A DNA stretch of 64,000 bases from Squalus acanthias (Eukaryota), in NCBI GenBank assembly GCA_030390025.1, contig CM059432.1, positions 23,748,001 to 23,812,000 of the forward strand. Reading direction: 5' to 3'. Both the position numbers and the translations under genes were made by a program. Positions within the stretch are counted from its first letter, which is position 1. Each line of letters begins with the position of its first letter. Below the pieces are notes generated by a model that did not search any database, was not told the origin of the DNA, and was given only the letters and a program-made list of their open reading frames with translations. Of the stretch, positions 8,065-55,010 are shown piece by piece.

Positions 8065-8280
8065 CAAATGTGAGAAGTCACACAACACCAGGTTATAGTC
8101 CAACAGTTTTATTTGAAATCACAAGCTTTCGGAGTGCCGCTCCTTCGTCAGGTGAAGTCACCCGACGAAGGAGCAGCGCTCCGAAAGCTTGTGATTTCAA
8201 ATAAAACTGTTGGACTATAACCTGGTGTTGTGCGACTTCTCACATTTGTCTACCCCAGTCCAACACCGGCATCTCCACAT
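8065..8280. mobile_element. Penelope-like element terminus (inverted pseudo-LTR) with hammerhead motifs
   Basis: 91-bp inverted arms 8065-8155 / 8158-8248 plus ~32-bp tail; flanked by direct repeat CATGGCCATAGCA (8054-8066, 8281-8293). Confidence 0.8.
8119..8155 (-). ncRNA. Minimal type I hammerhead ribozyme motif
   Basis: Minus strand UCAC-CUGACGA-A-GGAG(cggca)CUCC-GAAA-GCUU-GUGA. The + arm copy (8158-8194) has core CCGACGA (mutated). Confidence 0.65.
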
Positions 8281-9800
8281 CATGGCCATAGCAGTAAGAG
8301 GACACTGCGCTATGCTTCTGCTATGGGGCAACCTTTCTAATGGAAAACAGTGAAGATCACTGAAGGAACTACATCAACCGCTCTGCTGTGGTGGATTCAC
8401 CATAGCTCCCCATCTAGGCCAAGCCTCTCTCCCTTTATACCCTCTCTGATCAGTGATTTGTGTCAGCTCTGATGTAACCTTTTTGTTGTTCAGCTTTCAC
8501 ATGAACTTTATTCCACTTGTCTCAGCAGATGATGCTCCTTTGCTGCTGGCGTCCTTGCAAACAGCACCGGTAAACATCAAACGTTCCAGACATTGATGAA
8601 TTATTTCAGCATATTATTAAAAGTGGCATCATTATTTTTTTCAAATGAAAGGTTCACATTTCACACAGTTCCAATATAAAAACAGCGCAGCACGAACGGG
8701 TCTTTTCGGAGAATTAATCAGACCTACTATCCTGATTAACCCTTTACATCCTAGTCTCTGGCATTCACCCAAAACTATTAACCAGCACCAGGGCTCTTAG
8801 ACTGTTAAGATATTTGATATTAAATGTTTTCAAAAATAAATAATTTAAAAATAATAATTTAAAACATAAATCATGAATTCCCCAGAAGTTTTACTTGGTG
8901 CTTTCCCAACACTGAGTTTCAAAGGCTATGTTAGTTATTTATAGCACTTTGCACACATATATTATAATTATTGACTGTAGGTTAGAGTTTCACTGTAAAA
9001 GCACTAAGCACTTTAAATAACCAACTGCCTCAGAGGTGGAAAAGTGCTCCTGAGAAAAGCATGATAGCTAGATTTCCAAATTCATTGCAGTGTTTACTGT
9101 GCTTAATAAAGTGCTCTGAATAACTCCACGATACTTCCTGGGTTACTGTCAGGAACGTGGCATTAGGGGTTTTCTCGGGTGTACATTGTCAGCAGGGAGC
9201 ACAGGAAGGGCATTCTATATGGGGGTGGGGTCAAAAAAATTATGGGTATAAGCTTTCTTGAATTCCTCACTCCAAGACGTTAGGACAGTGCATTCCCAGC
9301 AGTGAGCTGTAAAGTCTGGTTTGGTTGTTTAATGTGCTTAGTGCACCTTTACTTTAAGTATGTGCCTTAGGTAACTAAGCACTGCCCTGCTCTAACACTA
9401 CAGCTACATTTCTGGGCATGACCTGCGAATTTGCTTTACATTGTGTAAAACTGTTACTATGGGCTGAATTTTAATCTGCAGGAGTGTGTGGGTTTGGGTG
9501 CGGGTGGGGGTGGTTAAAACCGACGAAATTGACTGCGTCGGGAAGCCGGCTCCAACCCGCCGACTTTCGCATTTCACGTTAGGCCGCGTGCAAGCAAACC
9601 CCTTGGGAGAGGCGGGTTGCCACTTAGCACACGTTAATCGCTCAATTAGAGCGATATTGACATGGGGTTTGCAATTTAACTTTGGGTCCACGGGTTTCCC
9701 GAGCTTCCTGGTGCTCACCAGTGAAAGCAAGGCGAGAGCACAGCGGCAATTGAGAGGGCTGAAGCCATGTCAGGGAAATATGCCAATAACTACTCAGTAC

Positions 9801-10064: not shown

Positions 10065-11225
10065 ACGGGTGCTGCTTACGCTGCCTTATATTGGACCTCA
10101 GATGAGGATGAAGGTGACCAGCAACAGCAGGACCAGCAACAGGCTGCTGCTCCCAGACCTGAAGCTCCACAGGAGAGAGAGGAGCAGCAGAGAGGTGCAG
10201 CTCGCAGGAGGCCTACCTGGTACGCAGAGTCCACAGGCAGAGGGGATAAGCTTCCTGGACATGTCTGAACACCAGTGTCTCAGGAGGCTCAGGGTGTCAC
10301 GTCAGGTGGTGGCAGACATTTGCAGGCTGCTGGAACAAGACCTGCTGTCAACTGGACCTGGTGGCCACGCTTTACCAGTGGCTGTCACCACCACCCTCAA
10401 CTTCTTTGTCTCTGGATCCTTTCGGGAATCTGCCGGAGACATTTGCAGGATCTCGCAGTCGGTGGCACACTAATGTATAAGACAGGTGACTGATGGCTTG
10501 TTTGCCAGGGCCGCCAATTATGTCAACTTTGCCAGCGATGACGCCAGTCAGAATGAGCGGGCGCTCGGGTTTGCGGCTCTGGCTGGCTTCCCACAGGTGC
10601 AGGGCATCATCGACTGCACACGTGACAATTAAGGTACCCCCAGATCACCCAGGAGTATTCGGAAACCGCAAGGGCTTCCACTCCATCAATGTGCAGCAGG
10701 TGTGCAACCACAAAAAGATGTGCAGGTGTGCGCAAGATTCTCGGGCAGCTGCCATGATGCTTTCATCCTGCGGCAGTCCACCCTCCCTGATCTCTGCACA
10801 CCTGGAAGCAGAATTACCGGCTGGCTGCTCGGAGACAAGGGATACCCACTTAAAACGTGGCTGAAGACACCTCTCAGAAACCCAAGGAATGAGGCTCAGG
10901 AGTGGTACAATGAAGGCCATATCACCACCAGATGTGTAATCGAACAAGCCATCTGCATACTGAAGATGCGCTTCAGGTGCCTGGACAGATCTGGAGGCGC
11001 CCTTCAGTACGCATCAGCCAGGGTCTCCAGAATGGTCGTGGTGTGCTGCGCTCTGCACAACATTACGCAGCAGCGAGGTTTGGACCTGCAGGAGGAACAA
11101 GGCACAGAGCCTCTTCGGAGGATTCCGAGGATGAGGGGGATGAGGTAGAAGGTAATGCGGGCAATGCACCACCAGTGGCGCACATTGCTGCCCGGGATGC
11201 CCTCATTATTGCGAGGTTCATTTAG
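10065..11225 (+). pseudogene. Harbinger DDE transposase (HARBI1-like), disrupted
   Basis: [70 protein letters not shown] spread over several frames, with a stop at ~10471. Confidence 0.9.
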
Positions 11226-14874: not shown

Positions 14875-17687
14875 TTAAATGTATTTAATGGCCCAGCCTC
14901 CACAGCTCTCTGGGGCAGAGAATTCCACAGATTTATGACCCTCCTGAGAGAAGAAATTCCTCCTCATCTCAGTTCTAAAAGGGCGACGCTTTATTTTAAA
15001 ACTGTGACCCCGAGTTCTAGATTTCCCCACGAGGAGAAACATCCTCTCTTCATCTACCTTGTCGAGCCCCCTCAGTATCTTATATGTTTCAATAAGATCA
15101 CCTCTCATTCTTCTAAATTCCAATGAGTATAGGCCCAGCCTGCTCAACCTTTCCTCATAAGTCAACCCCCTCATCTCTGGAATTAACCTAGTGAATCGTC
15201 TCTGAGCTGCCTCCAATGCAAGTATATCCTTCCTTAAATAAGGAGACCAAAACTGTACGCAGTACTCAAGGTGTGGTCTCACCAATACCCTGTACAGTTG
15301 TAGCAGGACTTCCCTGTTTTTATACTCCAACCCCCTTGAAATAAAGGCCAACATTCCATTTACCTTTTTGATTACTTGCTGTACCTGCATGCTAACATTT
15401 TCTGTTTCATGCACAAGGATCCCCAGGTCCCTCTGAACTGTAGCATTTTGTAATCTCTCTCCATTTAAATAATAATTTGCTTTTTTATTTTTCCTGCCAA
15501 AGTGGATAACCTTGCACTTTCCCACATTATACTCCATCTGCCAAACGTTTGCCCACTCACTTAGCCTGTCTATATCCCTTTGCAGGTTCTTTGAGTCCTC
15601 TGCACAACTTGCTTTCCCACCCATCTTTGTATCATCCGCAAACTTGGCTACATTACACTCGGTCCCTTCATCCAAGTCATTAATGTAGATTGTAAATAGT
15701 TGAGGCCCCAGCACCGATCCCTGTGGCACCCCACTAGTTACCATTTGCCAACCAGAAAATGACCCATTTATCCCGACTCTCTGCTTTCTGTTAGTTAGCC
15801 AATTCTCTATCCATGCTAATATATTACCCCCAATTCCGTGAGCTCTTATCTTATGCAGTAACCTTTTATGTGGCACCTTCTCGAATTCCTTCTGGAAATC
15901 CAAATACACCACATCTACTGGTTCACCTTTGTCCACCCTGCTCGTTACATCCTCAAAGAACTCCAGCAAATTTGTTAAACATGATTTCCCTTTCATAAAA
16001 CCATGCTGACTCTGCCTGACTGCATTATGATTTTCCAAATGCCCTGCTACTGCTTCCTTTAATGAAGGACTCCAGCATTTTCCCAATGACAGAGGTTAGG
16101 CTAACTGGTCTATAGTTTCCTGCTTTCTGTCTCCCTCCTTTCTTAAATAGGGTGTTACATTTGCGGTTTTCCAATCCGCTGGGACTTCTCCAGAGTCCAG
16201 GGAATTTTGGTATATTGCAACCAATGCATCCACTATCTCTGCAGCCACTTATTTTAAGACCCTGGGATGCAGGCCATCTGGTCCAGGGGACTTGTCATCT
16301 TTTAGTCCCATTATTTTACCAAGTACTATTTCCTTAGTGATAGTGATTGTCTTTAGTTCTCCCCTCCCTGTGGCCCCTTGATTATCCATTTTTGGGATGT
16401 TGTTAGTGTCTTCTACCGTGAAGACAGATACAAAATATTTGTTCAGACTCTGTGTCATTTCCCCGTTCTCCATTATTAATTCCCCAGTCTCATCCTCTAA
16501 GGGACCAACGTTTACTTTAGCTACCCTCTTCCTTTTTATATACCTGTAGAAGCTCTTACGATCTGTTTTAATGTTTCTTGCCAGTTTTCTCTCAGAATTC
16601 ATCTCTATTATATTTTTAGTCATCCTTTGCAGGTTTTTAAAAATTTCCCAATCCTCTGGTCTCCCACCAATCTTGGCAACATTGTATGCCTTCATTTTCA
16701 ATTTGATACTATCCTTTACTTCCTTAGTTAGCCACGGATGGTGCTCCCTTCTCTTAAAATCTTTCTTTCTCGCTGGAATATATTTTTGTTGAGAGTTAGG
16801 AAATATCTCCTTAAATGTCCGCCACTGCATTTCAACTGTCTTACCCTTTCATTTATTTTTCCAGTCCACTTTAGCCAGTTCTGCCCTCATACCATTTTAA
16901 TTGCCTTTGTTTAAGATCAGGACACTGGTTTGAGATACAACTTTCTCACCCTCCAACTGAATTTGAAATTCAACCAAGCTATGATCACTCTTTCCTAGAG
17001 GATCCTTCACTGTGAGATCATTTATTAATTCTGTCTCATTGCACAGTACCAGATCCAAGATCGCCTGCTCCCTGGTTGGTTCCATTACATACTGTTCTAG
17101 GAAACCATCCCGGATGCACTCTATGAACTCCTCCTCAAGACTACCATGTCCAATTTGATTTGTCCAATCAATATGGAGATTAAAATTACCCATGATTATT
17201 ACCGTACCTTTTTTACAGACCTCCATTATTTGTTGATTTATACTCTGTCCAACAGTACTGCTACTGTTCGTGGGCCTGTAGACTACGCCCACCAGAGACT
17301 TTTTCCCTTTATTATTTTTATCTCCACCCAAACCGATTCTACATCTTGATCTTCTGATCCAATATCACTTCTCGCCACTGCACTGATTCCATCCTTTACC
17401 AACAAAGCCACCCCACCTCCCTTTCCTTTCTGTCTGTCCTTCCGAATTGTCAGATACCCTGGAATATTCAGTTCCCTGCCCTGATCACCTTGCAACCACG
17501 TCTCTGTAATGGCGATCAGATCATACCCATTTGTATCTATTTGTGCCGTCAACTCATCTATCTTGTTAGGAATGCTGCGTGCATTCAGATATAGAGCTTT
17601 TAACTTTGTCTTTTTACCATTTCTCCTTGTTTTGGCCCCATTTTCTGTTGCACTCTTATTTTTAAACATTCTGCCCCTTCCTGTCAC
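14875..17687 (-). pseudogene. CR1 ORF2 (APE endonuclease + reverse transcriptase), few disruptions
   Basis: YLNARSI, ITETWL, GVVYRP, SDH, KSPGPDGLHPRVLK, QHGF, GVPQGSVLGP, FADDTK, VRPHLEYC; split over five ORFs by stops and frameshifts. Confidence 0.93.
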
Positions 17688-17788
17688 ACTCTGGTTATTA
17701 TTTCCCCCATCTCTATCCTGCTCTATTGTTTTCTCATTTCTCGTTGACTTTTTAAATTCCCGCTCACCTGGATCCTCCCCCCCACTAT

Positions 17789-18742
17789 TTAGTTTAAAGC
17801 CCTCTCTACTGCCCTAGTTATTCGATTCACCAGGACTCTAGCCCCAGCCTGGTTCAAGTGAAGCCCGTCCAAACGGAACAGCTCCCTCTTATCCCAGTAC
17901 TGGTGCCAGTGCCCCATAAATCGAAACCCATTTCTCCCACACCAGTATTTGAGCCACTCGTTCATTTCTCTGATCTTATTTACCCTATGCAAATTCGCTC
18001 GTGGCTCAGGTAGTAATCCAGAGATTATTACCTTTGTGGTTCTGCCTTTTAATTTAGCCCCTAGCTGCTCATACTCTCTCAGCAGAACCTCTTTCTTTGT
18101 CCTACCTATGTCATTGGTGCCTACATGGACCATGACAACTGGATCCTCCCCCTCCCACTCCAAGTTTCTCTTCAGCCCAGAGGAGATGTCCTTAACCCTG
18201 GCACCGGGCAGGCAACACAGCCTTCGGGACTCATGCTCTCGGCTGCAGAGAACAGTATCTGTCCCCCTAACTATACTGTCCCCTATCACTACAACATTTC
18301 TTTTTACTCCCCCCACTTGAATGGCTCCCTGTACCACGGTGCTGTGGTCAGATTGCTCATCCTCCCTGCAGTCCCTACCCTCGTCCACACAGGGAGCAAG
18401 AATCTCATACCTGTTAGACAAGGCCAAGGGCTGAGGCTCCTCCATCACTACCTCCTGGATACCAATACCTGCCTCGCTTGTAGTCACACCCTCCTGTCCC
18501 TGACCATGGACCAAATTGGAAGTAATTACTCTAGTGGGTGTGACTGCCTCCTGGAACTTAGCGTCCAGGTAACGTTCCCCCTCCCTAATGTGTCGCAGTG
18601 TCCGAAGCTCGGACTCCAGCTCATCAACTCTGAGCCGAAGTTCCTCGAGCAGCCAACATTTGCTGCAGATGTGGTCGCCTTGGACCTCAATGGTGTCCAC
18701 CAGCTCCCACATGCAACAACAACACATTGCCTGGTCTCCCAT
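17789..18742 (-). CDS. CR1 ORF1 (zinc finger/leucine zipper + SGNH esterase), open
   Basis: 317 aa; Cys motif with CSKC, heptad leucines, VVIGDSIVR, HVGTND, DGLHLN blocks. Confidence 0.9.
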   Translation of the reverse strand: MGDQAMCCCCMWELVDTIEVQGDHICSKCWLLEELRLRVDELESELRTLRHIREGERYLDAKFQEAVTPTRVITSNLVHGQGQEGVTTSEAGIGIQEVVMEEPQPLALSNRYEILAPCVDEGRDCREDEQSDHSTVVQGAIQVGGVKRNVVVIGDSIVRGTDTVLCSREHESRRLCCLPGARVKDISSGLKRNLEWEGEDPVVMVHVGTNDIGRTKKEVLLREYEQLGAKLKGRTTKVIISGLLPEPRANLHRVNKIREMNEWLKYWCGRNGFRFMGHWHQYWDKRELFRLDGLHLNQAGARVLVNRITRAVERALN

Positions 18743-18947
18743 CTCAATTCATTAATTAATTAGTTTTAAAATTTGGAACACGTATATCTTTTAATCTACA
18801 CCAAGGCACTTAAATGTAGACTCCCAAGTTTGGGAAAAAAAGCGAGAAATATAGAAATACTCGCCAACCAATCACTTACCTGCTTTCTGGTGACGTCACA
18901 CTTCGATTACTTTTTACATCTTTACATTCACCGGTCTGTTGTGCCCG

Positions 18948-20186
18948 TTCTCCTGGGCTCTCACTGTTTTTGTAACTCCGAACTCTCGCGCTCTCCCGGG
19001 CTCCCGCTCACCTTTAGTAGCTCCGAACTCTCGCGCTCTCTCCTGGGCACCCGCTCACCATTAGTAGCACCGAACTCTCGCTCTCGCCTGGACACCCGCT
19101 CACCATTAGTAGCTCCGAACTCTCGCTCTCTCCTGGGCTCTCGCTCACCTTTAGTAGCTCCGAACTCTCGCTCTCTCCCGGGCTCCTGCTGTTTTAGTAG
19201 CTCCGAACTCTCACTCTCCTGGGCTCTTGCTCACCTTTAGTAGCTCCGAACTCTCGCTCTCTCGTGGCCTCCCGCTCACCGTTAGTAGCTCCGAACTCTC
19301 GCTCTCTCCTGGGCTCCCGCTCACCTTTAGTAGCTCCGAACTCTCACACTCTCCTGGGCTCTTGCTCACCTTTAGTAGCTCCGAACTCTCGCTCTCTCGT
19401 GGCCTCCCGCTCACCGTTAGTAGCTCCGAACTCTCGCTCTCTCCTGGGCTCCCGCTCACCTTTAGTAGCTCCGAACTCTCGCTCTCTCCTGGGCTCCCGC
19501 TCACCTTTAGTAGCTCCGAACTCTCGCTCTCTCCTGGGCTCCCGCTCACCTTTAGTAGCTCCGAACTCTCACTCTCCCGGGCTCCTGCTCACCTTTAGTA
19601 GCTCCGAACTCTCGCTCTCTCCTGGGCTCCCGCTCACCTTTAGTAGCTCCGAACTCTCACACTCTCCTGGCCTCCCGCTCACCTTTAGTAGCTCCGAACT
19701 CTCGCGCTCTCCTGGGCTCCTGCTCACCTTTAGTAGCTCCGAACTCTCGCTCTCTCCTGGGCTCCCGCTCACCTTTAGTAGCTCCGAACTCTCGCTCTCT
19801 CCTGGGCTCCCGCTCACCTTTAGTAGCTCCGAACTCTCGCTCTCTCCTGGGCTCCCGCTCACCTTTAGTAGCTCCGAACTCTCGCTCTCTCCTGGGCTCC
19901 CGCTCACCTTTAGTAGCTCCGAACTCTCGCTCTCTCCTGGGCTCCCGCTCACCTTTAGCGGTGCCGAACTCTCGCGCTCTCCTGGGCTCCCGCTCACCTT
20001 TAGTAGCTCCGAACTCTCGCGCTCTCCTGGGCTCCCGCTCACCTTTAGTAGCTCCGAACTCTCGCGCTCTCCTGGGCTCCCGCTCAACTTAAGTAGCTCC
20101 GAACTCTCGCTCTCTCCTGGGCTCCTGCTGTTTTAGTAGCTCCGAACTCTCGCGCTCTCCTGGGCTCCCCCTGTTTTAGTAGCTCC
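18948..20186. repeat. 45-bp tandem array, about 27 units (left part)
   Basis: Unit CTCACCTTTAGTAGCTCCGAACTCTCGCTCTCTCCTGGGCTCCCG with shorter CTGTTTTAG variants; no spacers. Confidence 0.95.
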
Positions 20187-20560
20187 TGAAGTAAGCCCCC
20201 AAAGTGCGGACCAAGTGATATACAAGGTCGACGCTACTGGCTTGTTGAAAGAAAGACAGACCAAGTAATTGAAGTCACAACGGTTTATTCAGGCCTGGGG
20301 AGAACCTCTTACGTTGCTGCGTAAGTCCAACTCCACCGAGCTAATCAAAGCACACATATTTGTACAACATTTCTGCCTTACCCTTACGGAGATCCAATTA
20401 ATTTTAGAAGTTACACATTTACTCATTATCCGAGGGTGGCGGTTTATACAAAGATAACACATAATTTACACACAATGCTGTGCTAGCCCATGATGTGGTT
20501 TCCAGAACTGTGCTCGCTGTTTTCTGTTAATCTCGTTATAGGCCTGCTTCTGTTAATCTC

Positions 20561-21159
20561 CATGATACGGAGATGCCGGTGTTGGACTGGGGTGGACAAA
20601 ATTGAGAGGTCGCACAACACCAGGTTATAGTCCAACAGTTTTATTTGAAATCACAAGCTTTCGGAGCTATCGATCGCCCCTTCCTCAGGTGAAGTAAAGA
20701 AATACAGACTCGACAAAGCATATATAGATAGAGAACAATGCATGTGTACCTTACAATTGCAGACAACTAAATTAAATCATCCTGACTATCTGCCGAGGTG
20801 TGATAAAGTTAATCAGGTCAGCCAGGAAGGTACCACATCAAAGACATAGCAAGATACAACTGAGACAATGACCCCTGCGACTCCACCTCATTGTCTCAGT
20901 TGTATCTTGCTATGTCTTTGATGTGGTACCTTCCTGGCTGACCTGATTAACTTTATCACACCTCGGCAGATAGTCAGGATGATTTAATTTAGTTGTCTGC
21001 AATTGTAAGGTACACATGCATTGTTCTCTATCTATATATGCTTTGTCGAGTCTGTATTTCTTTACTTCACCTGAGGAAGGGGCGATCGATAGCTCCGAAA
21101 GCTTGTGATTTCAAATAAAACTGTTGGACTATAACCTGGTGTTGTGCGACCTCTCAATT
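20561..21159. mobile_element. Penelope-like inverted pseudo-LTR insertion
   Basis: Arms 20600-20871 / 20888-21159 (272 bp, no mismatch seen), 16-bp loop, 39-bp tail; flanked by CTGTTAATCTC; same family as 8065-8280. Confidence 0.85.
21067..21108 (+). ncRNA. Minimal type I hammerhead ribozyme motif (mirror copy on - strand at 20651-20692)
   Basis: UCAC-CUGAGGA-A-GGGGC(gaucgaua)GCUCC-GAAA-GCUU-GUGA: both core boxes, helix II, palindromic AAGCUU helix III, UCAC/GUGA helix I. Confidence 0.7.
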
Positions 21160-21248
21160 CTGTTAATCTCGTCATAGGCCTGCTTTTCTGCAAATGAGTC
21201 ATGCCCGTCTTGCCCTTGTTTTGTCCAATTTTTTAATATCTTACTTCA

Positions 21249-21260
21249 GTCCCCCCTTTT
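21249..21260 (-). promoter_or_regulatory. Polypurine tract
   Basis: AAAAGGGGGGAC immediately before the 3' LTR TG. Confidence 0.9.
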
Positions 21261-21660
21261 GACCTATTGGACAACTGTTCCAATACAGGTCAACATGTAT
21301 TCCTGTTGCCTGGTGTTTGCCCGAGCATGCACTCTCTGGCCTTCTACCAGTCTAGGTTATACATGGGTATGACATAAACCAATTTATGAGCCGGTTTCAC
21401 CCCACACGGTATATGTGGTCTTTTTTTTTTGTCTTTGTTCTTATGTTGCCATTCCCGGGGCCCCAGAGCCCTGCATCAATGGTTTGAGCTTCTGGTTCGA
21501 GCTCGTCCTCCATCCCCCGGTGGGTGCGTGACGTGTCCTTTCGAGACTGTCATCACTCACCAATCCTGTTTCTGCCACTCCCGTCTTACGGTTGGCCGGC
21601 CTGGTTATTAATTACCATGTCCAATTCATTCCTTGTAATTTTAGGGCTATAGATCGGGTC

Positions 21661-22995
21661 TTACACCATTCTCATAAGAGTGGCTGAGGGATCTCCTGCG
21701 AGAAGCTCCTCATCCTCCTTTCTTTCATGGTTTGCCACGGCGCCAATCTTGGCTTTACCTAATCTGGTGCAGAGGCATTTGAGCAGCAAGAATACACAGT
21801 ATATTGTAATAACAATCACGAGGAATATCATTATGCCTTGTACGACTGAGGCGCCCAACGTCCCCAACCATCCTGATCCCCAATCACCAAAATAGGAAGA
21901 GGTGGGGGAGTTTCTAGTTTTTCTTGCCTGTTCTTGTATGTGGGTTGCAAGGTTCTCAATCTCTTCTGAATCATCTGGAATGTAAGTGCAGCATGTTGGT
22001 CCTATTATGGCACACGTCCCTCCTTCCTTTGCTAATAGATAATCTAGGGCTATCCGGTTCTGCATTGAGACAGTACGTACAGCTACCAATTCTTCATTTA
22101 TTGATCTGGCCATCCCGGCCGTATCATTGGCTACTTGTTCCAATAATGTATTTAATTGGTCCGTTTCTAAAATGGTTCTATGTACCCCATAGAAAGGCCA
22201 CATTATGGCCATAACCTTTTCCCAGGTTTGCACCGCCCGTTTGCTCCTGCCCATTGGGACCCCTTGTTGGGCGTCGGTTAGGGTTTTGTGGTGGGTTACA
22301 TATGGCTGTACATAGCCGAGGTAACATGATCCTCTCCAGTTGGATGGCAGCCAGGGGTACGCCCTTTCACCGCATATAAAATACGTGCCATTATAGGCAC
22401 ATGTCCGGGATTCGTCCGTTACCCACGGTATGATAGTGTTCCCTTCCGTGCCATTATCAAGGGGGACAGTTAGATACGTTGCGGTGAACACTGGCCCGTC
22501 TTGGGCTCGTGTCATACTGACATTTTGGCAACATTTACTGCGTCCCATATCCCTTCCCGCTCCTTCCCTTGTTATACAAATTATTCCTTCCACTTTTTCC
22601 TTGAGGGTCAAAAATGGAGGTTCCTGTGTGTTAGTGTACTTGGGAAGATACCACCCTCTGAACCGATCTGGGTCATACCCTGCTGCCTCCCATTGCTTCT
22701 TCACCTGGCTTGTATCCTCCCCCTCGCTATTGATACCGTTATCATTTCCGGTGTTATTTTGATTAAGAAACCAGGATGCCATTTCCGAGTAATTAAAAGG
22801 CACGGGTTTCACCGGAATTCCTTCCTCGGAATTTGTCGGGGCTCCGGAGCAGACCCAACAGCTGGAGAGGTTCAGCTGACTCGCGTATTTCCATGACATA
22901 TACAAGTAACTATTTCCTGTAGTTTTAGGCATCCTTTCTACATTATGGAGTACGCCTAGGCCTATAAGGCCATATATAAGCAGATACTTGATCAT
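21661..22995 (-). CDS. env: Retroviral envelope glycoprotein, gamma-type, intact (444 aa from first ATG)
   Basis: Signal peptide MIKYLLIYGLIGLGVL, CWVC, RSKR furin site, fusion peptide, heptad, ISD-like MQNRIALDYLLAKEGG, CAIIGPTCC (CX6CC), TM helix, tail; no stops. Confidence 0.95.
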   Translation of the reverse strand: MIKYLLIYGLIGLGVLHNVERMPKTTGNSYLYMSWKYASQLNLSSCWVCSGAPTNSEEGIPVKPVPFNYSEMASWFLNQNNTGNDNGINSEGEDTSQVKKQWEAAGYDPDRFRGWYLPKYTNTQEPPFLTLKEKVEGIICITREGAGRDMGRSKCCQNVSMTRAQDGPVFTATYLTVPLDNGTEGNTIIPWVTDESRTCAYNGTYFICGERAYPWLPSNWRGSCYLGYVQPYVTHHKTLTDAQQGVPMGRSKRAVQTWEKVMAIMWPFYGVHRTILETDQLNTLLEQVANDTAGMARSINEELVAVRTVSMQNRIALDYLLAKEGGTCAIIGPTCCTYIPDDSEEIENLATHIQEQARKTRNSPTSSYFGDWGSGWLGTLGASVVQGIMIFLVIVITIYCVFLLLKCLCTRLGKAKIGAVANHERKEDEELLAGDPSATLMRMV

Positions 22996-23202
22996 CTTGT
23001 TCCTTGTTGTCGACCGTCCCTTCTTCCGTCGTTCTTCTAATTTGTCCTGTGGAAATACAAGGCTGGTCGTCACCAGCAGTTAATTATTCCATTCTTACTA
23101 CTTCTACTATCTCGGGCCTTGGGTTACCCCGTACCCGGATACACACTCCTTGATCGACGCATACAGAACCTACAATTATTCAAGCCATGCAGACACATCC
23201 AA

Positions 23203-24189
23203 TTAAATTAGTAGAATGCCTTTCACTTCCTCATCTTGTAACCTTTGTTTGTTAGCAGGCATTGGTTTCATTAAGACCCGTGTCCATGTATACTGTTTGC
23301 CGCCTATTGTAAAGGCGAATTTTTCTTGTGATTCCTCATGCAGGGGAATGGACCAGAATCCGTTTGCGATGTCTAACAAGGTGAATATTTTGTGTTCTGG
23401 TTTTAAACCGTTAAAGATAGTAGCTGGGCTTGCTACAATTGGATATTCCTTTGGGGTCACTTTATTTAAGGCTGTGTAATCGATTGTAAGTCGACATGAC
23501 GCATCAGGTTTCTTTACGGGCCATACTGGAGAATTAGTGCCGGACACTGTTTCTCGCAAAATTCCTTGTTTAACTAGTTCCAATACTATACTCCGTACGG
23601 CTGTCTGGGCCTCCATTTTTAGGGGATACTGTTTATGGGGTCGGTGGGTTGGCCCGGGGACTCTGACTGGGTTTATCTTGACCAGTCCGCAGTCCTGCTT
23701 GTGTTTGGCCCATAGTTCGGGGAATCGGTGGCAAATTTCCCCCCATCCTCCCTTTTTGTCCCATTTGGGGTCTATTATTCGGAGAGCGCTGATGGCGCAT
23801 GCTGTCTTGGATCCCTTTGATTTATGTCTCTCTTCCTTATGGTTATCGGGCCATAGCAACTTATCTTGCTTGGGGTCTATTAAAACTCCCACTTCCCTTA
23901 GTATGTCTATACCCAGGATGGTCCCCTCAGTATTTTCACAGATCCAGAAACATGTAGGTATAATGATTTTTCCTAATTCTAGTAATACTGTATCACTTTT
24001 CCATGCTTTAATTTTTACTCCCCCTATCCCGGATATAAAAATATTTTTCTTGGTTCGCGGCAAGGGTACGTTTGTTCGAGATATTGCTGCCCCGGTGTCT
24101 ATGAGCATTCTGCACTGTCGGCCCCCTACCAGTGCCTCAATAAACATTCTAGGGTCTCTCTTTGCCGGGTCTCCGAGGGCCGCTACCTG
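23203..24189 (-). pseudogene. pol: pro-pol: aspartic protease + N-terminal RT, truncated
   Basis: LIDTGA, ILGIDIL, NSPVWPVKKPD, LTIDY, LDIANGFWSIPL, FAFT, QYTWTR; then no LPQG, YxDD, RNase H or integrase core. Confidence 0.93.
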
Positions 24190-25736
24190 TCAGGCGTTGC
24201 CCTTTTTTATTTGTTTGACCAGTTTTTCCATTTTCCTTGTCAGCCCCACTATGTCTTCCTCGTCGGAGGTGTCTGAGGAATCGTCTCTCTTATACTTCCT
24301 ACTCTTTCTCCTCTTCCTTTCTTCTCTTCCCCTCTCATCCTCCCAGTCTTGCATTCCCTTCTTGATCAGTTGCGCCACGTTTTCCTCGTTATTCTCTGAC
24401 CTTCCAATACTTGACCCCGGTTTTCCTCCCTGTCTAGGTCCCTGACCTTCCCTTCCTCCTCCTTTATTCCAACATTGTTGTTTCCTATGCCCTGGTTTTC
24501 CACAGTTATGACAGGAAGCCTTTTGCTGAGATGTCTGATTACCCCCCTTGTTCTGTTGCCTCGGGCAATCCCTTTCCATGTGGCCCTCCTGTCCGCAACT
24601 GAAGCATGCCGCCACACTTAATGCATCTTCATTGTCGCTATCCGTCCTTAGAGCAGCTATTTTAGGTTTGGCTTGTTCTTGGGCCTGATTATCTACTTCG
24701 CACGCCCACTGTATTAAATCATCCCAATTATTGTGGACCACTAGCCCCATTTTTATTGCATTCTGGTGCATTGGACTTAGTCCCTGTTTAAATGTTTGCA
24801 GAAAACAAGCGTTGTTTTTGTTTAAGGGGCCTGGGATCCCACAGTTACCCTCAAAGGCGGACCACTTTCGTTTTCCATAATCGATGGCGCTTTCTCCCTT
24901 TTTTTGTGTGATTCCACTTATAGCTGCCCAATTTACGGGGGCCTGTCCCATTGCTGCTTCCACAGCGGCCTTGAATTGGTCGAACTCAGTGTTTAATTGT
25001 TGGATTGTCTGTCCTGTATTTGCGGCCCACTGGCCATTTCCGTGGTTGCCCTGCACTAATCTCCACTGTTCCTCGGGACATTTAGCTCGTACCAATTGAT
25101 CGATATCTATACTATGTAGGGCATGGTTTATGCGTACTTCGCGCAGTTTGTGCCAGAATGTCTGATTATTCTGGCGGTGTTTTAAGGTTGGTAATTCGTT
25201 GAGGAGAATCACCCGATCCTGCAGGCTTAACGGTGTGTAGGTCATTGTTGCGGTGGCCGGCCTGCCCAGTACTGCCGGAACGGCCGGAATTCCCCCCGCC
25301 GCCGGAACTGCCGGGACCGCGGGGATTGCCGGCCTATAATGCAGTCTCACTGGTGCCATCGGAACAGGCTCCGGGGCCACCGACTGGTGTCCTGAATACG
25401 GGGGAGGACAGCCGGTCGGCCCTCCCAGGGCAGTTCCGGGTATACCTTTTCCCGGGAGTCACCCGGTTTTGGGGCGGTTGCAGCTACTGGATATGTCTTA
25501 AGGACTCCGTGCTGGAGCGTACATTCCCGATGGTAACGTGCCGCCACGATAATGTACGCTTTTTCCAATTTATTTTTGGTTTGTTTCATCCACCAGTCCC
25601 TTTGTGTGTCTAGTTTATCGTCCCGGTTCCACCCTGCCTTCCTCATTTTCTCAGTTAGTTTTTTATTCTTGTCATAAACATATCGTGTTACAGACTCTGG
25701 GTCTCCCCAGGGTTCCTTATCCTCTTTACTAGTCAT
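24190..25736 (-). pseudogene. gag: gag with one frameshift
   Basis: ATG at 25736; YPEL in the upstream frame, PPPY in the downstream frame (shift ~25410-25430); MHR-like ITQKKGESAIDY; two CCHC knuckles CFSCGQEGHMERDC and CHNCGKPGHRKQQC. Confidence 0.9.
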
Positions 25737-26301
25737 ATCCAAAGTTTTTGAGTACTCCTATATTTTATTCAATATTTTATACACCCTTGTCACGTGATCA
25801 CAATCCTGTGGTGCTTTGTAGTCCCTACGCCTACTTGATCCTGGCCGTCACGTGGGACTACGTCCTCTTAATTCAGGCTCAGGCTGGCTGTTTGAGACAG
25901 GCACCACCCTTGTCCGAGTTGATCACTCCGTGATTCTCAGTTCAACTTTATACTTTATTGACACAACGGATCTCCCTATACTTTAAGCAGTCACGCGCTT
26001 AGTCTACTTTTCGGCCAGAAGGACTCGTCCTTCATCCAGTGTTAAAACAACCCGTTTAACTACTTCTTAAGAGCCGCACCTCGTGGGCCTACCGGGTTTC
26101 TAAACCCTTGTTTTCCGGTTCCGCAGTCCGGCAGTTTTAACCGCCTTCAATTAAAGGTGTCTTTCTTTTTATAGTTCTTTTGTACGTCGATCTTACTTAA
26201 CGTCTTGCCAGCGATTCACCTCTAATTTTACAGGTGGTAATTTTAAACGTACTCACCCGTCTTAGGTTATCGCTGTCCGAGAGTTTTTGTTCAGATCGCG
26301 T

Positions 26302-26319
26302 ATCTCATCCTCGTCGCCA
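26302..26319 (-). promoter_or_regulatory. Primer binding site, tRNA-Ser(GCU)-like
   Basis: TGGCGACGAGGATGAGAT, 2 nt after the 5' LTR; 17/18 match to the recalled vertebrate tRNA-Ser(GCU) 3' end AUCCCAUCCUCGUCGCCA. Confidence 0.8.
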
Positions 26320-26321
26320 AT

Positions 26322-26777
26322 TGAAGTAAGCCCCCAAAGTGCGGACCAAGTGATATACAAGGTCGACACTACTGGCTTGTTGAAAGAAAGACAGACCAAG
26401 TAATTGAAGTCACAACGGTTTATTCAGGCCTGCGTAAGTCCAACTCCACCGAGCTAATCAAAGCACACATATTTATACAACATTTCTGCCTTACCCTTAC
26501 GGAGATTCAATTAATTTTAAAAGTTACACATTTACTCATTATCCGAGGGTGGCGGTTTATACAAAGATAACACATAATTTACACACAATGCTGTGCTAGC
26601 CCATGATGTGGTTTCCAGAACTGTGCTAGCCGTTTTCTGTTAATCTCATTATAGGCCTGCTTCTGTTAATCTCGTTATAGGCCTGCTTCTGTTAATCTCG
26701 TTATAGGCCTGCTTTTCTGCAAATGAGTCATGCCCGTCTTGCCCTTGTTATGTCCAATTTTTTAATATCTTACTTCA
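26322..26777 (-). repeat. Proviral 5' LTR (456 bp)
   Basis: 9-bp terminal IR; three 26-bp U3 repeats; TATAAA ~26473-26478; AATAAA ~26419-26424. Confidence 0.95.
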
Positions 26778-27009
26778 GCTCCAAACTCTCGCTCTCTCCT
26801 GGGCTCTCGCTCACCTTTAGTAGCTCCGAACTCTCGCGCTCTCCTGGGCTCCCGCTGTTTTAGTAGCTCCGAACTCTCGCACTCTCCTGGGCTCCCGCTG
26901 TTTTAGTAGCTCCGAACTCTCGCTCTCTCCTGGGCTCTCGCTCACCTTTAGTAGCGCCGAACTCTCGCTCGCTCCTGGGCTCCCGCTCACCTTTAGTAGC
27001 TCCGAACTC
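26778..27009. repeat. 45-bp tandem array, right part (about 5 units)
   Basis: Same unit resumes in register after the TSD. Confidence 0.95.
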
Positions 27010-45000: not shown

Positions 45001-45485
45001 ATTCCAAAACTTGCCATGGTGGGGTTGGAACTCTCTGGGACACTAGTCCAGTGCCATAACCACTTCACTACTGCACTTGATACTACTACTTAGTAAAAAG
45101 GTCCCTTTCATTCAGCTCTTGCCAAAACATGAGGAATAGAGCATCCTAAAACTTTCAGTAATAGGAAACTGAAAACATTTATAGTACGACTCAAGTTACC
45201 AAAACACTTCCTTGCTTAATCAAACTGCTTTTTGTTGTAACAATGGGCATGGTTTAGAAATTCTCACTTTTCAAAAACATCTCTGATTTCCCAAACTATA
45301 AACCCAAACAGCAAACCTTCAGGGCATGTTTTTCCAAAAGAGAAAGTAAGTAGTCCAGTAATGCCGTGAAAATGTTTGCCACCGATTCCCCCAGCAATAA
45401 ATTGGAAAATAAGGGATGTTCTAGATGGCAACCTAAAAGGTAGAACCTACCGCCAAATTTATTAATGAGCTTCAGAGTTCAAGAA

Positions 45486-46120
45486 CTGTACATTGGATAG
45501 TTCAACAGCTGTACATTGGATAGTTCAATAGCTGTACATTGGATAGTTCAACAGCTGTACATTGGATGGTTCAACAGCTGTACATTGGATAGTTCAACAG
45601 CTGTACATTGGATAGTTCAATAGCTGTACATTGGATAGTTCAACAGCTGTACATTGGATAGTTCAATAGCTGTACATTGGATAGTTCAACAGCTGTACAT
45701 TGGATAGTTCAACAGCTGTACATTGGATAGTTCAACAGCTGTACATTGGATAGTTCAACAGCTGTACATTGGATAGTTCAACAGCTGTACATTGGATAGT
45801 TCAACAGCTGTACATTGGATAGTTCAATAGCTGTACATTGGATAGTTCAATAGCTGTACATTGGATAGTTCAACAGCTGTACATTGGATAGTTCAACAGC
45901 TGTACATTGGATAGTTCAACAGCTGTACATTGGATAGTTCAACAGCTGTACATTGGATAGTTCAACAGCTGTACATTGGATAGTTCAACAGCTGTACATT
46001 GGATAGTTCAATAGCTGTACATTGGATAGTTCAACAGCTGTACATTGGATAGTTCAACAGCTGTACATTGGACAGTTCAATAGCTGTACATTGGATAGTT
46101 CAATAGCTGTACATTGGATA
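45486..46120. repeat. 23-bp minisatellite, about 27.5 units
   Basis: Unit CTGTACATTGGATAGTTCAA(C/T)AG head to tail. Confidence 0.97.
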
Positions 46121-51929: not shown

Positions 51930-54900
51930 AGAATAAAACCAGATGGACCACCCGGCATTGACCTCGGCACCGGCTTCGGACACGACAGCGGCACACCCAG
52001 CCCAGTCGACCCTGCAAAGTCTGAAGGGATAATTACTAATCCTAGCTCCTTTAGGGCTACTCCAGATCAGGCGTATTCCTCAGACGTTCACTTTCAACTA
52101 AAGTTTGAGGTAGCCGAATCCTAAAGACGCTTAATTGGGTCCAAAGGTCTGGACTATCTCTCCCTAAAGGAAAGGAACAACCTGAAAATGTTACCGTCCT
52201 CCAGATAGCACTTTTAATAAGTTTAGCTAGACTGTAACGTTCCGGATATTATGAGGGTTCGGAAAACTCCCCCAGAATTCTGCAACTCCTCACCAAAGAG
52301 TGGACAGAGATTGAGTTTGTGAGTTTTTGATACAGAAGTCTTATGTGAGACAATTCTAAAAATATATAGATTTATTAAAGAACCGACATGTAATTTACAG
52401 TTGGTGAGTCAATCGCAACATAAACAATTCCAAAAAGAGAAAGCTTACAATCTTATTATCAGAGAACCTTACTCTCAAATCTTAACTTCGCTACAGTTTT
52501 ACAGTTCTTAAAGTTCTATTCAGGATATCAACCAAAATCAAATACCTTTGATCCCCGAGGTACAAAGAGTGGAGACTTACAGAGCCGCCTCTGAAGCCGA
52601 GAATCGCTTTGCCCCTTTAAAGCGAGTCTACTATCCCATTTGAGAGTTCAATATTTATACCCTTTTCCAGTGGTATTACCTTTAAGGTTTTCTTCTGATG
52701 TAAGCTAATTATCTCTAGTCATTTTTCTGCTGACCCCTGCAATTCTTAGTGACCTCAGCTGATAGCATTACAGAATTATGTCTCTTCTCTAGGTGTTCTA
52801 AGTTTACCATAAAAAACGGTGTTATGGCAGGTGTGTGTTTTACTTGATGTCATTTTTACAAAGGCAGATGTTTCTTACTTTTTTGTGCTTCTTTACGAAG
52901 TGTAAATTAGAACACCTTATCCAGGGTGAACCATTGTTTCATTCCGAAAGGTTCAGCCTGTCAGAGCCTTTAACCTTCTGTTTCAATAAGGTTATTGATT
53001 CAATGTCAACAACTATCTTATCTCTATAGCCAGAATGCTTTCACAGCTTTTTCATAGTTAGGTTTCTAGATTTCCAAACCCAGTTTGTCATGTTTTAATA
53101 AGGGCAGAATTCTTTCAAAAGATAGTGTATTTTTCTGAATAGGTTATATGGCTTATTCCTTCACAAGTCCTCCTCACTAACATCTGGGGACTTGTGCCAA
53201 AATTGGGAGAGCTGTCACACAAACTAGTCAAGCAACAAACTGACATAGTCTTACTCACAGAATCATACGTATCAGCCAATGTCCCTGATTCCACCATCAC
53301 CATCCCTGGGTATGTCCTGTCCCACCAGCAGGACAGACCCACCAGAGGTGGCGGCACAGTGGTATATAGTCGGGAGTGAGTGGCCCTGGGAGTCCTCAAC
53401 ATTGAATCCGGACCCCATGAAGTTTCATGGCTTCAGGTCAAGCACGGGCAAGGAAACCTCCTGCTGATTACCACCTACCGCCCTCCCTCAGCTGATGAAT
53501 CAGTACTCCTTCACGTTGAACACCGCTTGGAAGAAGCACTGAGGGTAGCAAGAGCACAGAATGTACTCTGGCTGGGAGACTTCAATGTCCATCACCAAAA
53601 GTGGCTCGGTAGCACCACTACTGACTGAGATGACCGAGTCCTGAAGGACATAACTGCCAGACTGGGACTGCGGCAGGTGGTGAGAGAACCAACACGAGGG
53701 AAAAACCTACTTGACCTCGTCCTCACCAATCTACCTGTCGCAGATGCATATGTCCATGACAGCATTGGTAGCAGTGACCACTGCACAGTCCTTGTGGAGA
53801 CGAAATCTTCTCTTCACACTGAGGACACTCTCCATCATATGTGTGGCACTACCACCGTGCTAAATGGGATAGATTCAGAACAGATCCATCAGCACAAAAC
53901 TGGGCATCCATGAGGTGCTGTGGGCCATCAGCAGCAGCAGAATTGTATTCCACCACAATCTGTAAACTCATGGCCTGGCATATCCCTCATTCTACCATTA
54001 CCATCAAGCCAGGGGACCAACTCTGGTTCAATGAGGAGTGCAGAAGAACATGCCAGGAGCAGCACCAGGCATACCTAAAAATGGGGCGCCAACCTGGGGA
54101 AGCTGCAACACAGGACTACATGCATGCTAAACAGCGGAAGCAGCATGCTATAGACAGAGCTAAGAGATCCCACAATCAACGAATCAGATCAAAGCTCTGC
54201 AGTCCTGCCACATCCAGTTGTGAATGGTGGTGGACAATTAAACAACTAACGGGAGGAGGAGGTTCCATGAATATCCCCATCCTCAACGATGCTGGATCCC
54301 AGCACGCGAGTGCAAAAGACAAGGCTGAAGCCAGAAGTGCCGAGTGGATGATCCATATCGGCCTCTTCCTGAGGTCCCCACCATTACAGAAGCCAGTCTT
54401 CAGCCAATTCGATTCACTCCATGTGATGTCAAGAAACGGGCTGAGCGCACTGGATACAGCAAAGGCTATGGGCCCTGACAACATCCCGGCTGTTATGCTG
54501 AAAACTTGTGCTCCAGAACTAGCCGCCCCTCTAGCCAAGCTTTTCCAGTACAACTACAACACTGGCATCTACCCGACAATGTGGAAAATTGCCCAGGTAA
54601 GTCCTGTCCACAAAAAGCAGGACAAATCCAATCTGGCCAATTACTGCCCCATCAGTCTACTCTCAATCATCACTCTACAAGATGCACTGCAGCAACTCAC
54701 CAAGGGCTTCTTCGGCAGCACCTCCCAAACCCGCGACCTCTACCGCCTAGAAGGACAAGGGCAGCAGGCGCATGGGAACACTATTACTTGCAATTTGCCC
54801 TCCAAGTTACACACCTTCCTGACTTGGAAATATATCGCCGTTCCTTCATCGTCGCTGGGTCAAAAACCTGGAACTCCCTCCCTAACAGCACTGTGGGAGC

Positions 54901-55010
54901 ACCTTCACCACACGGACTGCAGCGGTTCAAGAAGGCAGCTCACCACCATTAGGGATGGGCAATAAATGCTGGCCTTGCCAGCGACGCCCACGTCCCAGGA
55001 ACGAATTAAA
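51930..55010 (+). mobile_element. LINE family B with endonuclease, most of RT deleted
   Basis: KVLLTNIWGL, DIVLLTESY, TYRPPS, GDFN, SDH, KAMGPDNIP, CPISLLSII, then a jump (~54670) to the C-terminus and 3' hairpin. Confidence 0.88.
52022..53163 (-). mobile_element. Solo LTR (1142 bp) inserted at the start of the LINE endonuclease
   Basis: TGAAGGGATAA / TTATTCCTTCA termini; flanks AAAGTC / CAAGTC; minus-strand TATAAA (~52655) upstream of AATAAA (~52371). Confidence 0.75.

Follow-up and report, generated by a model that had tools for sequence, protein, structure and literature searches.

A single endogenous retrovirus copy in Squalus acanthias with a unique pol deletion and an open env frame

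Endogenous retroviruses (ERVs) that combine a pol gene from outside class I with a gamma-type env have already been published (PMC8278194; bioRxiv 10.1101/2021.11.23.469661). In frogs, XtERV-S of Xenopus tropicalis and its relatives carry a non-class-I pol together with a gamma-type transmembrane subunit (TM) of Env (PMC8278194), and a preprint reports gamma-type Env in six cartilaginous fish, as well as a class III Pol group related to snakehead retrovirus (SnRV) and frequent pol/env incongruence in anamniote ERVs (bioRxiv 10.1101/2021.11.23.469661). SnRV-related ERVs have been designated clade Huo (PMC6001957) and, in the elephant shark, CmiERV lineage I (PMC4422223); PMC9967133 and PMC10435555 were also consulted. 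Also on record are env-less 'superspreader' ERVs (Magiorkinis et al. 2012, as cited in PMC4643047) and env co-option of the Fv4 and syncytin type (cited in PMC8278194). The current study concerns a provirus of the shark Squalus acanthias (nt 20187 – 26777, minus strand) within a 64,000-nt stretch of contig CM059432.1 (positions 23,748,001 – 23,812,000 of the forward strand, assembly GCA_030390025.1), hereafter called the window. Literature searching brought up no account of the family studied here, though this says little about whether one exists.

The locus is very probably a single replication-dead copy. It has lost about 2.9 kb of pol through a deletion that no other place in the genome shares, and its env probably remains open only for want of mutations.

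The provirus and its pol deletion

The provirus is real: it ends in TG..CA and is flanked on either side by the target site duplication (TSD) GCTCC. For comparison, 31 sibling copies were fetched from the genome assembly, and in 14 of the 15 with both ends in view the TSD is likewise 5 bp. The features of the provirus are as follows.

nt 20182 – 20186: left TSD copy, GCTCC
nt 20187 – 21248, minus strand: 3' long terminal repeat (LTR), 1062 bp, U3 interrupted
nt 20561 – 21163: inserted inverted pair of Penelope-like element ends, about 600 bp, in the 3' LTR only
nt 21249 – 21260, minus strand: polypurine tract (PPT), directly before the 3' LTR
nt 21661 – 22995, minus strand: env open reading frame (ORF), ATG at 22995, stop at 21661, 444 aa, gamma-type
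nt 23047 – 23060, minus strand: predicted env splice acceptor (pyrimidine tract and CAG), some 50 nt upstream of the env ATG, spared by the deletion
nt 23275 – 23276, minus strand: junction of the pol deletion of about 2.9 kb, 0–1 nt microhomology, unique in the genome
nt 23276 – 24189, minus strand: protease and N-terminal part of reverse transcriptase (RT)
nt 24190 – 24192, minus strand: single TGA between in-frame gag and pro-pol, putatively read through
nt 24193 – 25736, minus strand: gag, with a single frameshift near 25.43 kb
nt 26251 – 26257, minus strand: predicted major splice donor GG/GTGAGT, donor at 26256
nt 26302 – 26319, minus strand: primer binding site (PBS), tRNA-Ser(GCU), 17 of 18 nt matching the genome's tRNA-Ser(GCT) plus CCA
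nt 26322 – 26777, minus strand: 5' LTR, 456 bp, TATA at 26561, AATAAA at 26424
nt 26778 – 26782: right TSD copy, GCTCC

The RT remnant covers only positions 1–107 of the 205 of Pfam RVT_1, and the LPQG and YxDD motifs are absent, as had been noticed in the original prediction. The deleted sequence comprises RT from the palm onwards, RNase H, integrase (IN) and about 250 nt of spacer. The env gene does follow closely, its ATG being 280 bp past the junction rather than the distance of about 200 bp first given. In the 'pol' frame, the final 24 codons are not pol but run on into the spacer that normally separates pol and env in the family. Microhomology at the break is 0–1 nt, judged from siblings in which both sides were found (5 of 6).

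Relatives with full pol, for which a genome search had been proposed, do exist: many siblings, 96–98.5% identical over long stretches, hold the full RT-RNase H-IN region missing here. The junction itself occurs once. A 30-nt junction probe gave one match in the 3.7 Gb genome and its control none (here and below, probe counts allow two mismatches, are lower bounds and come from one assembly), and a 601-bp query across the junction found no other full-length match among the 40 scored of 931 candidates. Other pol-deleted siblings break at different points, and unique internal deletions are common among siblings. No contig piece bridged the 23275 junction among the matches listed for eight sequencing runs, in which contigs continue into full pol; such contigs show presence only, so that this result speaks neither for nor against the junction in the reads.

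These data bear on the proposal that the locus is a helper-dependent element, i.e. that Gag-Pol from siblings served to package the deleted genome and integrate it anew, as one of a non-autonomous, env-carrying line. The PBS, PPT, leader and LTR ends are all present, pol is uninterrupted in 4 of the 31 siblings fetched, and the deletion may have arisen during reverse transcription, before integration. Since the junction is found only once, however, this is not a spreading helper-dependent family in the assembly searched, and the presence of the insertion in one LTR only means that the window copy was not made from a template carrying it. This proposal is accordingly very unlikely.

The gag gene is split over two frames by a single indel relative to siblings, in agreement with the one frameshift originally reported, and no further gag indel was among those seen against at least 10 siblings. 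It encodes two CCHC zinc knuckles. A search for an RNA stem or pseudoknot after the gag TGA gave structure no better than chance (z 0.44), and an Rfam scan of the whole window returned no matches. The PBS and PPT were correctly recognised from the start. Genome-wide there are 252 pattern matches to tRNA-Ser(GCT)-type 3' ends, and all three that were checked are tRNA-Ser gct. This tRNA is the primer of the provirus family; its 3' ends also occur in long tandem arrays (period about 1.6 kb) on contig C26, at about 38.9–41.9 Mb.

The LTRs, unlike the first description of them, are not both intact. An insertion of about 600 bp makes the 3' LTR 1062 bp long relative to 456 bp, while the 5' LTR lacks 22 nt that are present in the 3' LTR and in 16–18 siblings. 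The pair differs by 9 substitutions over 443 aligned bases (2.0%), corresponding to 46 My (million years) at the shark rate assumed in PMC4422223, and to 10 My if a rate of 1e-9 per site per year is taken for illustration. The U3 of the 5' LTR contains three copies of a 26-bp unit (nt 26635 – 26714); its copy number varies among sibling LTRs, and it is possibly an enhancer repeat.

The env gene and the history of the family

As predicted, env is free of stops and of gamma type. Its 444 codons specify a signal peptide, CWVC at residue 46, the furin site RSKR at 250, an immunosuppressive domain (ISD; QNRIALD) at 312, CX6CC at 328, and a membrane span at about 380–410 followed by a short tail. 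The product matches Pfam TLV_coat (2.9e-18), and its best sequence match in PDB is syncytin-2 (1.8e-17). With regard to a hydrophobic fusion peptide at the N-terminus of TM, no 15-residue window between signal peptide and membrane span exceeds 1.3 on the Kyte-Doolittle scale; this peptide has been reported as variable in anamniote Envs. That the 444-aa Env had been shortened by an internal deletion was considered and ruled out, as siblings are colinear and also 444 aa long.

The genome contains 16 matches to an env-TM probe, namely the window copy and 15 siblings, all of which were fetched. An open frame of 444 codons is found in 4 of these 15 (95% confidence interval 11–52%), three of the four with ATG and motifs. 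Among 145 genome matches, no fewer than 25 further env frames, more distantly related, run for at least 440 codons without a stop. The pro-RT remnant and the C-terminal part of gag of the window copy are stop-free too, though useless. Private changes in the window env amount to one or two synonymous and one nonsynonymous, where siblings average 5.4 nonsynonymous; the split between the two classes does not differ from that of the pooled siblings (Fisher p 0.54), i.e. there is no significant sign of selection, though a test on two or three private changes has no power. The env is most likely open by chance, having received too few mutations so far. The original suggestion that youth alone may explain the open frame is the best reading; 'young' itself holds only in a relative sense (see below).

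Several observations weigh against this reading. In its number of private nonsynonymous env changes the window copy ranks lowest (Poisson p 0.028 taken alone, 0.35 across 15 copies), the deletion has left the splice acceptor and the whole of env untouched, and an env splice is present, at the level of the family, in one contig; the census also rests on a single assembly and on pattern counts that, at two mismatches, are minimum values. The splice contig, from one presumed-RNA run, joins 23048 to 26259, within 2 nt of the predicted acceptor and donor. It is family-level evidence at most, because all copies, including the env-less ones, share both splice sites. With these sites retained, expression of env from a spliced RNA at this locus is possible, judging from the sequence.

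Such observations could also be taken as the beginnings of co-option, in which the host keeps env for Fv4-like receptor blocking, fusion or immune modulation, the loss of gag and pol having made it safe. The frame is open with all motifs, the splice donor and acceptor and the TATA of the 5' LTR are kept, and the private nonsynonymous count is the lowest among 15 copies. On the other hand, four of the 15 siblings have an env no less open, the genome holds dozens of further open envs, the two or three private changes carry no power, and the locus sits in an array associated with a long interspersed element (LINE), with no host-gene domain among 20 long ORFs scanned. Co-option, as raised in the original prediction, is therefore very unlikely. 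Proof of selection on env and of its expression would nevertheless make it a rare case of env co-option in sharks, of which a limited literature search gave no evident example.

Probe counts for the genome were 79 for the LTR, 16 for env-TM and 80 for RT, the last made up of 25 older-type variants and 55 of one env-less variant. Two shared env-deletion junctions were found, in 61 and 8 copies, giving 69 env-deleted against 16 env-bearing copies, and in all seven fetched members of the 61-copy group (examples L055 – L061) most of env is gone. The LTR pairs of this env-less burst are 0–0.6% apart, about 0.2% (6 measurable pairs), while those of older siblings have a median of 2.2% (range 0.9–4.7%, 14 pairs). 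The divergence of the window copy is therefore close to the older-sibling median and about ten times that of the burst, so that its youth is relative only. The larger junction was found in contigs of all eight runs, which carry four organism codes. The family has thus spread via loss of env with pol kept, in the manner known from env-less ERVs (PMC4643047), and the pol-less form at this locus did not spread.

Some further features of the env-less groups may be added. The 61-copy burst is very recent, with a partly different U3 and almost no private changes; relative to the window copy its synonymous divergence (dS) is about 0.09 and the ratio of nonsynonymous to synonymous divergence (dN/dS) about 0.25, indicating that it replicated under selection. 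The 8-copy subgroup is a second, older one, with a junction corresponding to window nt 21723/22920.

The course of events can be pictured as follows. The parent virus would have combined a non-class-I, SnRV-side pol, likely made by readthrough of the TGA, with a compact gamma-type Env, for which splicing likely supplied the RNA (donor 26256, acceptor 23047), and about 25 older-type copies would have entered the germ line. The window copy would later have gained its gag frameshift, the pol deletion and the Penelope-like insertion in its 3' LTR, and appears to have left no descendants in this assembly, while the family seemingly kept multiplying as env-deleted, pol-retaining derivatives, probably by intracellular retrotransposition. 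A bolder version is that this locus is an Fv4-like restriction gene in the making, which, devoid of gag and pol but with its intact env still spliced, joined the few open siblings in blocking reinfection by the parent virus, and so pushed the family into the env-less intracellular bursts that account for most of its present copies. It is regarded as very improbable.

The locus itself matters little, being one of several decay routes among the copies of its family. The family is of modest value to paleovirology, for two reasons. Its Pol belongs to a non-class-I lineage of sharks and teleosts, and at least four of the families sampled in this genome show a stable pairing of that lineage with a single subclade of gamma-type Env. 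It also illustrates cleanly, within one family of a cartilaginous fish, how amplification followed upon the loss of env.

The 3' LTR insertion and the target site

The insertion in the 3' LTR has arms at nt 20596 – 20871 and 20888 – 21163, each of 276 bp and 100% complementary, forming a perfect palindrome. At another locus, L099, its sequence borders two frames, one RT-like (YIDD) and one of GIY-YIG type, the latter with a match of 22.3 bits, just below the 22.6 cut-off. It is on the ground of ending such an element that the insertion was classed as Penelope-like. Its presence in one LTR only suggests that it arrived after integration of the provirus. It landed within the 26-bp U3 repeat, and related pieces occur at window nt 8065 – 8285.

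The surroundings of the provirus are given by one further feature.

nt 14878 – 20186, minus strand: target site, consisting of a 45-bp tandem array and a decayed LINE

The array spans nt 18968 – 20169 and resumes from about 26777 to 27009, the provirus having integrated inside it. It lies just upstream of the LINE, which retains an ORF1 with an esterase (GDSL), an endonuclease and an RT. The array has 32 copies of its unit, and is possibly the repeated 5' promoter of the LINE.

Tandem arrays in both flanks, together with a perfect palindrome inside, raise the question of whether the deletion or the palindrome could be a mis-join of the assembly. Against such an artefact, the TSD, both LTRs and the colinear internal sequence are present as expected on a 154-Mb contig, similar inverted pairs of Penelope-like ends are found at L099 and L100, and unique internal deletions, as noted, are common in siblings. 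A mis-join is scarcely credible.

Outside the provirus, the 20 long window ORFs that were scanned gave mobile-element domains or nothing. The window contains a DDE_Tnp_4 (Harbinger-type) transposase fragment at nt 10633 – 11148 and a plus-strand frame of 380 codons at nt 53823 – 54965 with no Pfam match. A 23-bp minisatellite (28 copies, 97% matches) occupies nt 45476 – 46120.

Placement of the family and comparison with known retroviruses

Placement used the natural RT of an env-less sibling. Trees had 22–43 rows, thinned by hand from 120, and were built without ERV-L, ERV-S, XtERV-S or class II references. A single RT-remnant protein query against viral contigs gave no match, while an alignment query then matched. 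The best of 19 reference-virus RT matches was SnRV (2e-78), with the best gamma virus at 1e-70. Loci of SnRV, WDSV, MoMLV, REV, GALV and BaEV were named as such, three others are presumably Xen1, SSSV and WEHV, and foamy loci were labelled by motif.

A class I clade of gamma and epsilon viruses (support 100/99) leaves the family outside. The approximately unbiased (AU) test rejects grouping of its RT with gamma (p 0.00078) or epsilon (p 0.00063) viruses, and marginally rejects a sister relationship to SnRV alone (p 0.026) and a foamy grouping (p 0.025). The family and SnRV fall on the same side of the class I split, as a clade with support 77/63 in one tree and as an open fork in others. The foamy clade (100/100) also leaves the family out, and the zinc knuckles and in-frame pol are likewise unlike foamy viruses; a foamy affinity hinted at by the truncated RT was ruled out with the full family RT. 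The family RT belongs to a shark/teleost clade of its own (97/93), whose further members are one Mustelus-type ERV, one ERV from Pimephales and three more families sampled in this genome (7 of 12 hand-picked loci having yielded usable RT). The description 'SnRV-like' is therefore only approximate. YIDD was absent from all 120 RT matches in one tree.

In the TM tree, the window env groups (97/92) with those that accompany its own Pol lineage, and with one env belonging to a different non-class-I lineage; envs adjoining epsilon-like Pol form a separate subclade. The pairing of pol and env is therefore probably old and lineage-wide, rather than a recent recombinant. The discordance of pol and env seen at the outset holds, since the RT is neither gamma nor epsilon and the SnRV env is unrelated to that of the window. 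The closest named env and RT homologues are from sharks and rays (Heptranchias, Scyliorhinus, Pristiophorus, Hemitrygon, Heterodontus, Mustelus). A broader group of gamma-type Envs, with TM 40–54% identical to the window env, adjoins at least three Pol lineages in the genome, epsilon-like included (L116 – L127); at L118 a close TM is paired with a different Pol lineage, likely an env swap.

SnRV shares with the window family a pol that is 32% identical over 849 aa, the in-frame gag-stop-pol arrangement and YVDD. It differs in having one knuckle, a TAG stop, a different PBS, and an env frame without CX6CC or ISD that gives no tblastn match to the window env. Its PBS is presumably that of tRNA-Arg.

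XtERV-S resembles the window family in its tRNA-Ser PBS and in-frame gag/pol across one TGA, and its Env is similarly compact, with 441 aa, CWIC at 40–43, furin site at 251–255 and CX6CC at 344–352, compared to 444 aa, 46, 250 and 328 here (PMC8278194). It differs in its YIDD motif, the lack of a Cys-His box, a segment resembling dUTPase and a primer of the Ser(AGA/TGA) type (PMC8278194), whereas the window family shows YVDD, two CCHC knuckles and Ser(GCU), and gave no Pfam match to dUTPase. A class III example that the preprint names is from a frog (bioRxiv 10.1101/2021.11.23.469661), the window family from a shark. Compared to env-less superspreaders (cited in PMC4643047), the window locus has the opposite type of deletion and has not spread, but the env-deleted derivatives of its family resemble them: there are 69 of these to 16 copies with env, and no other copies are as young.

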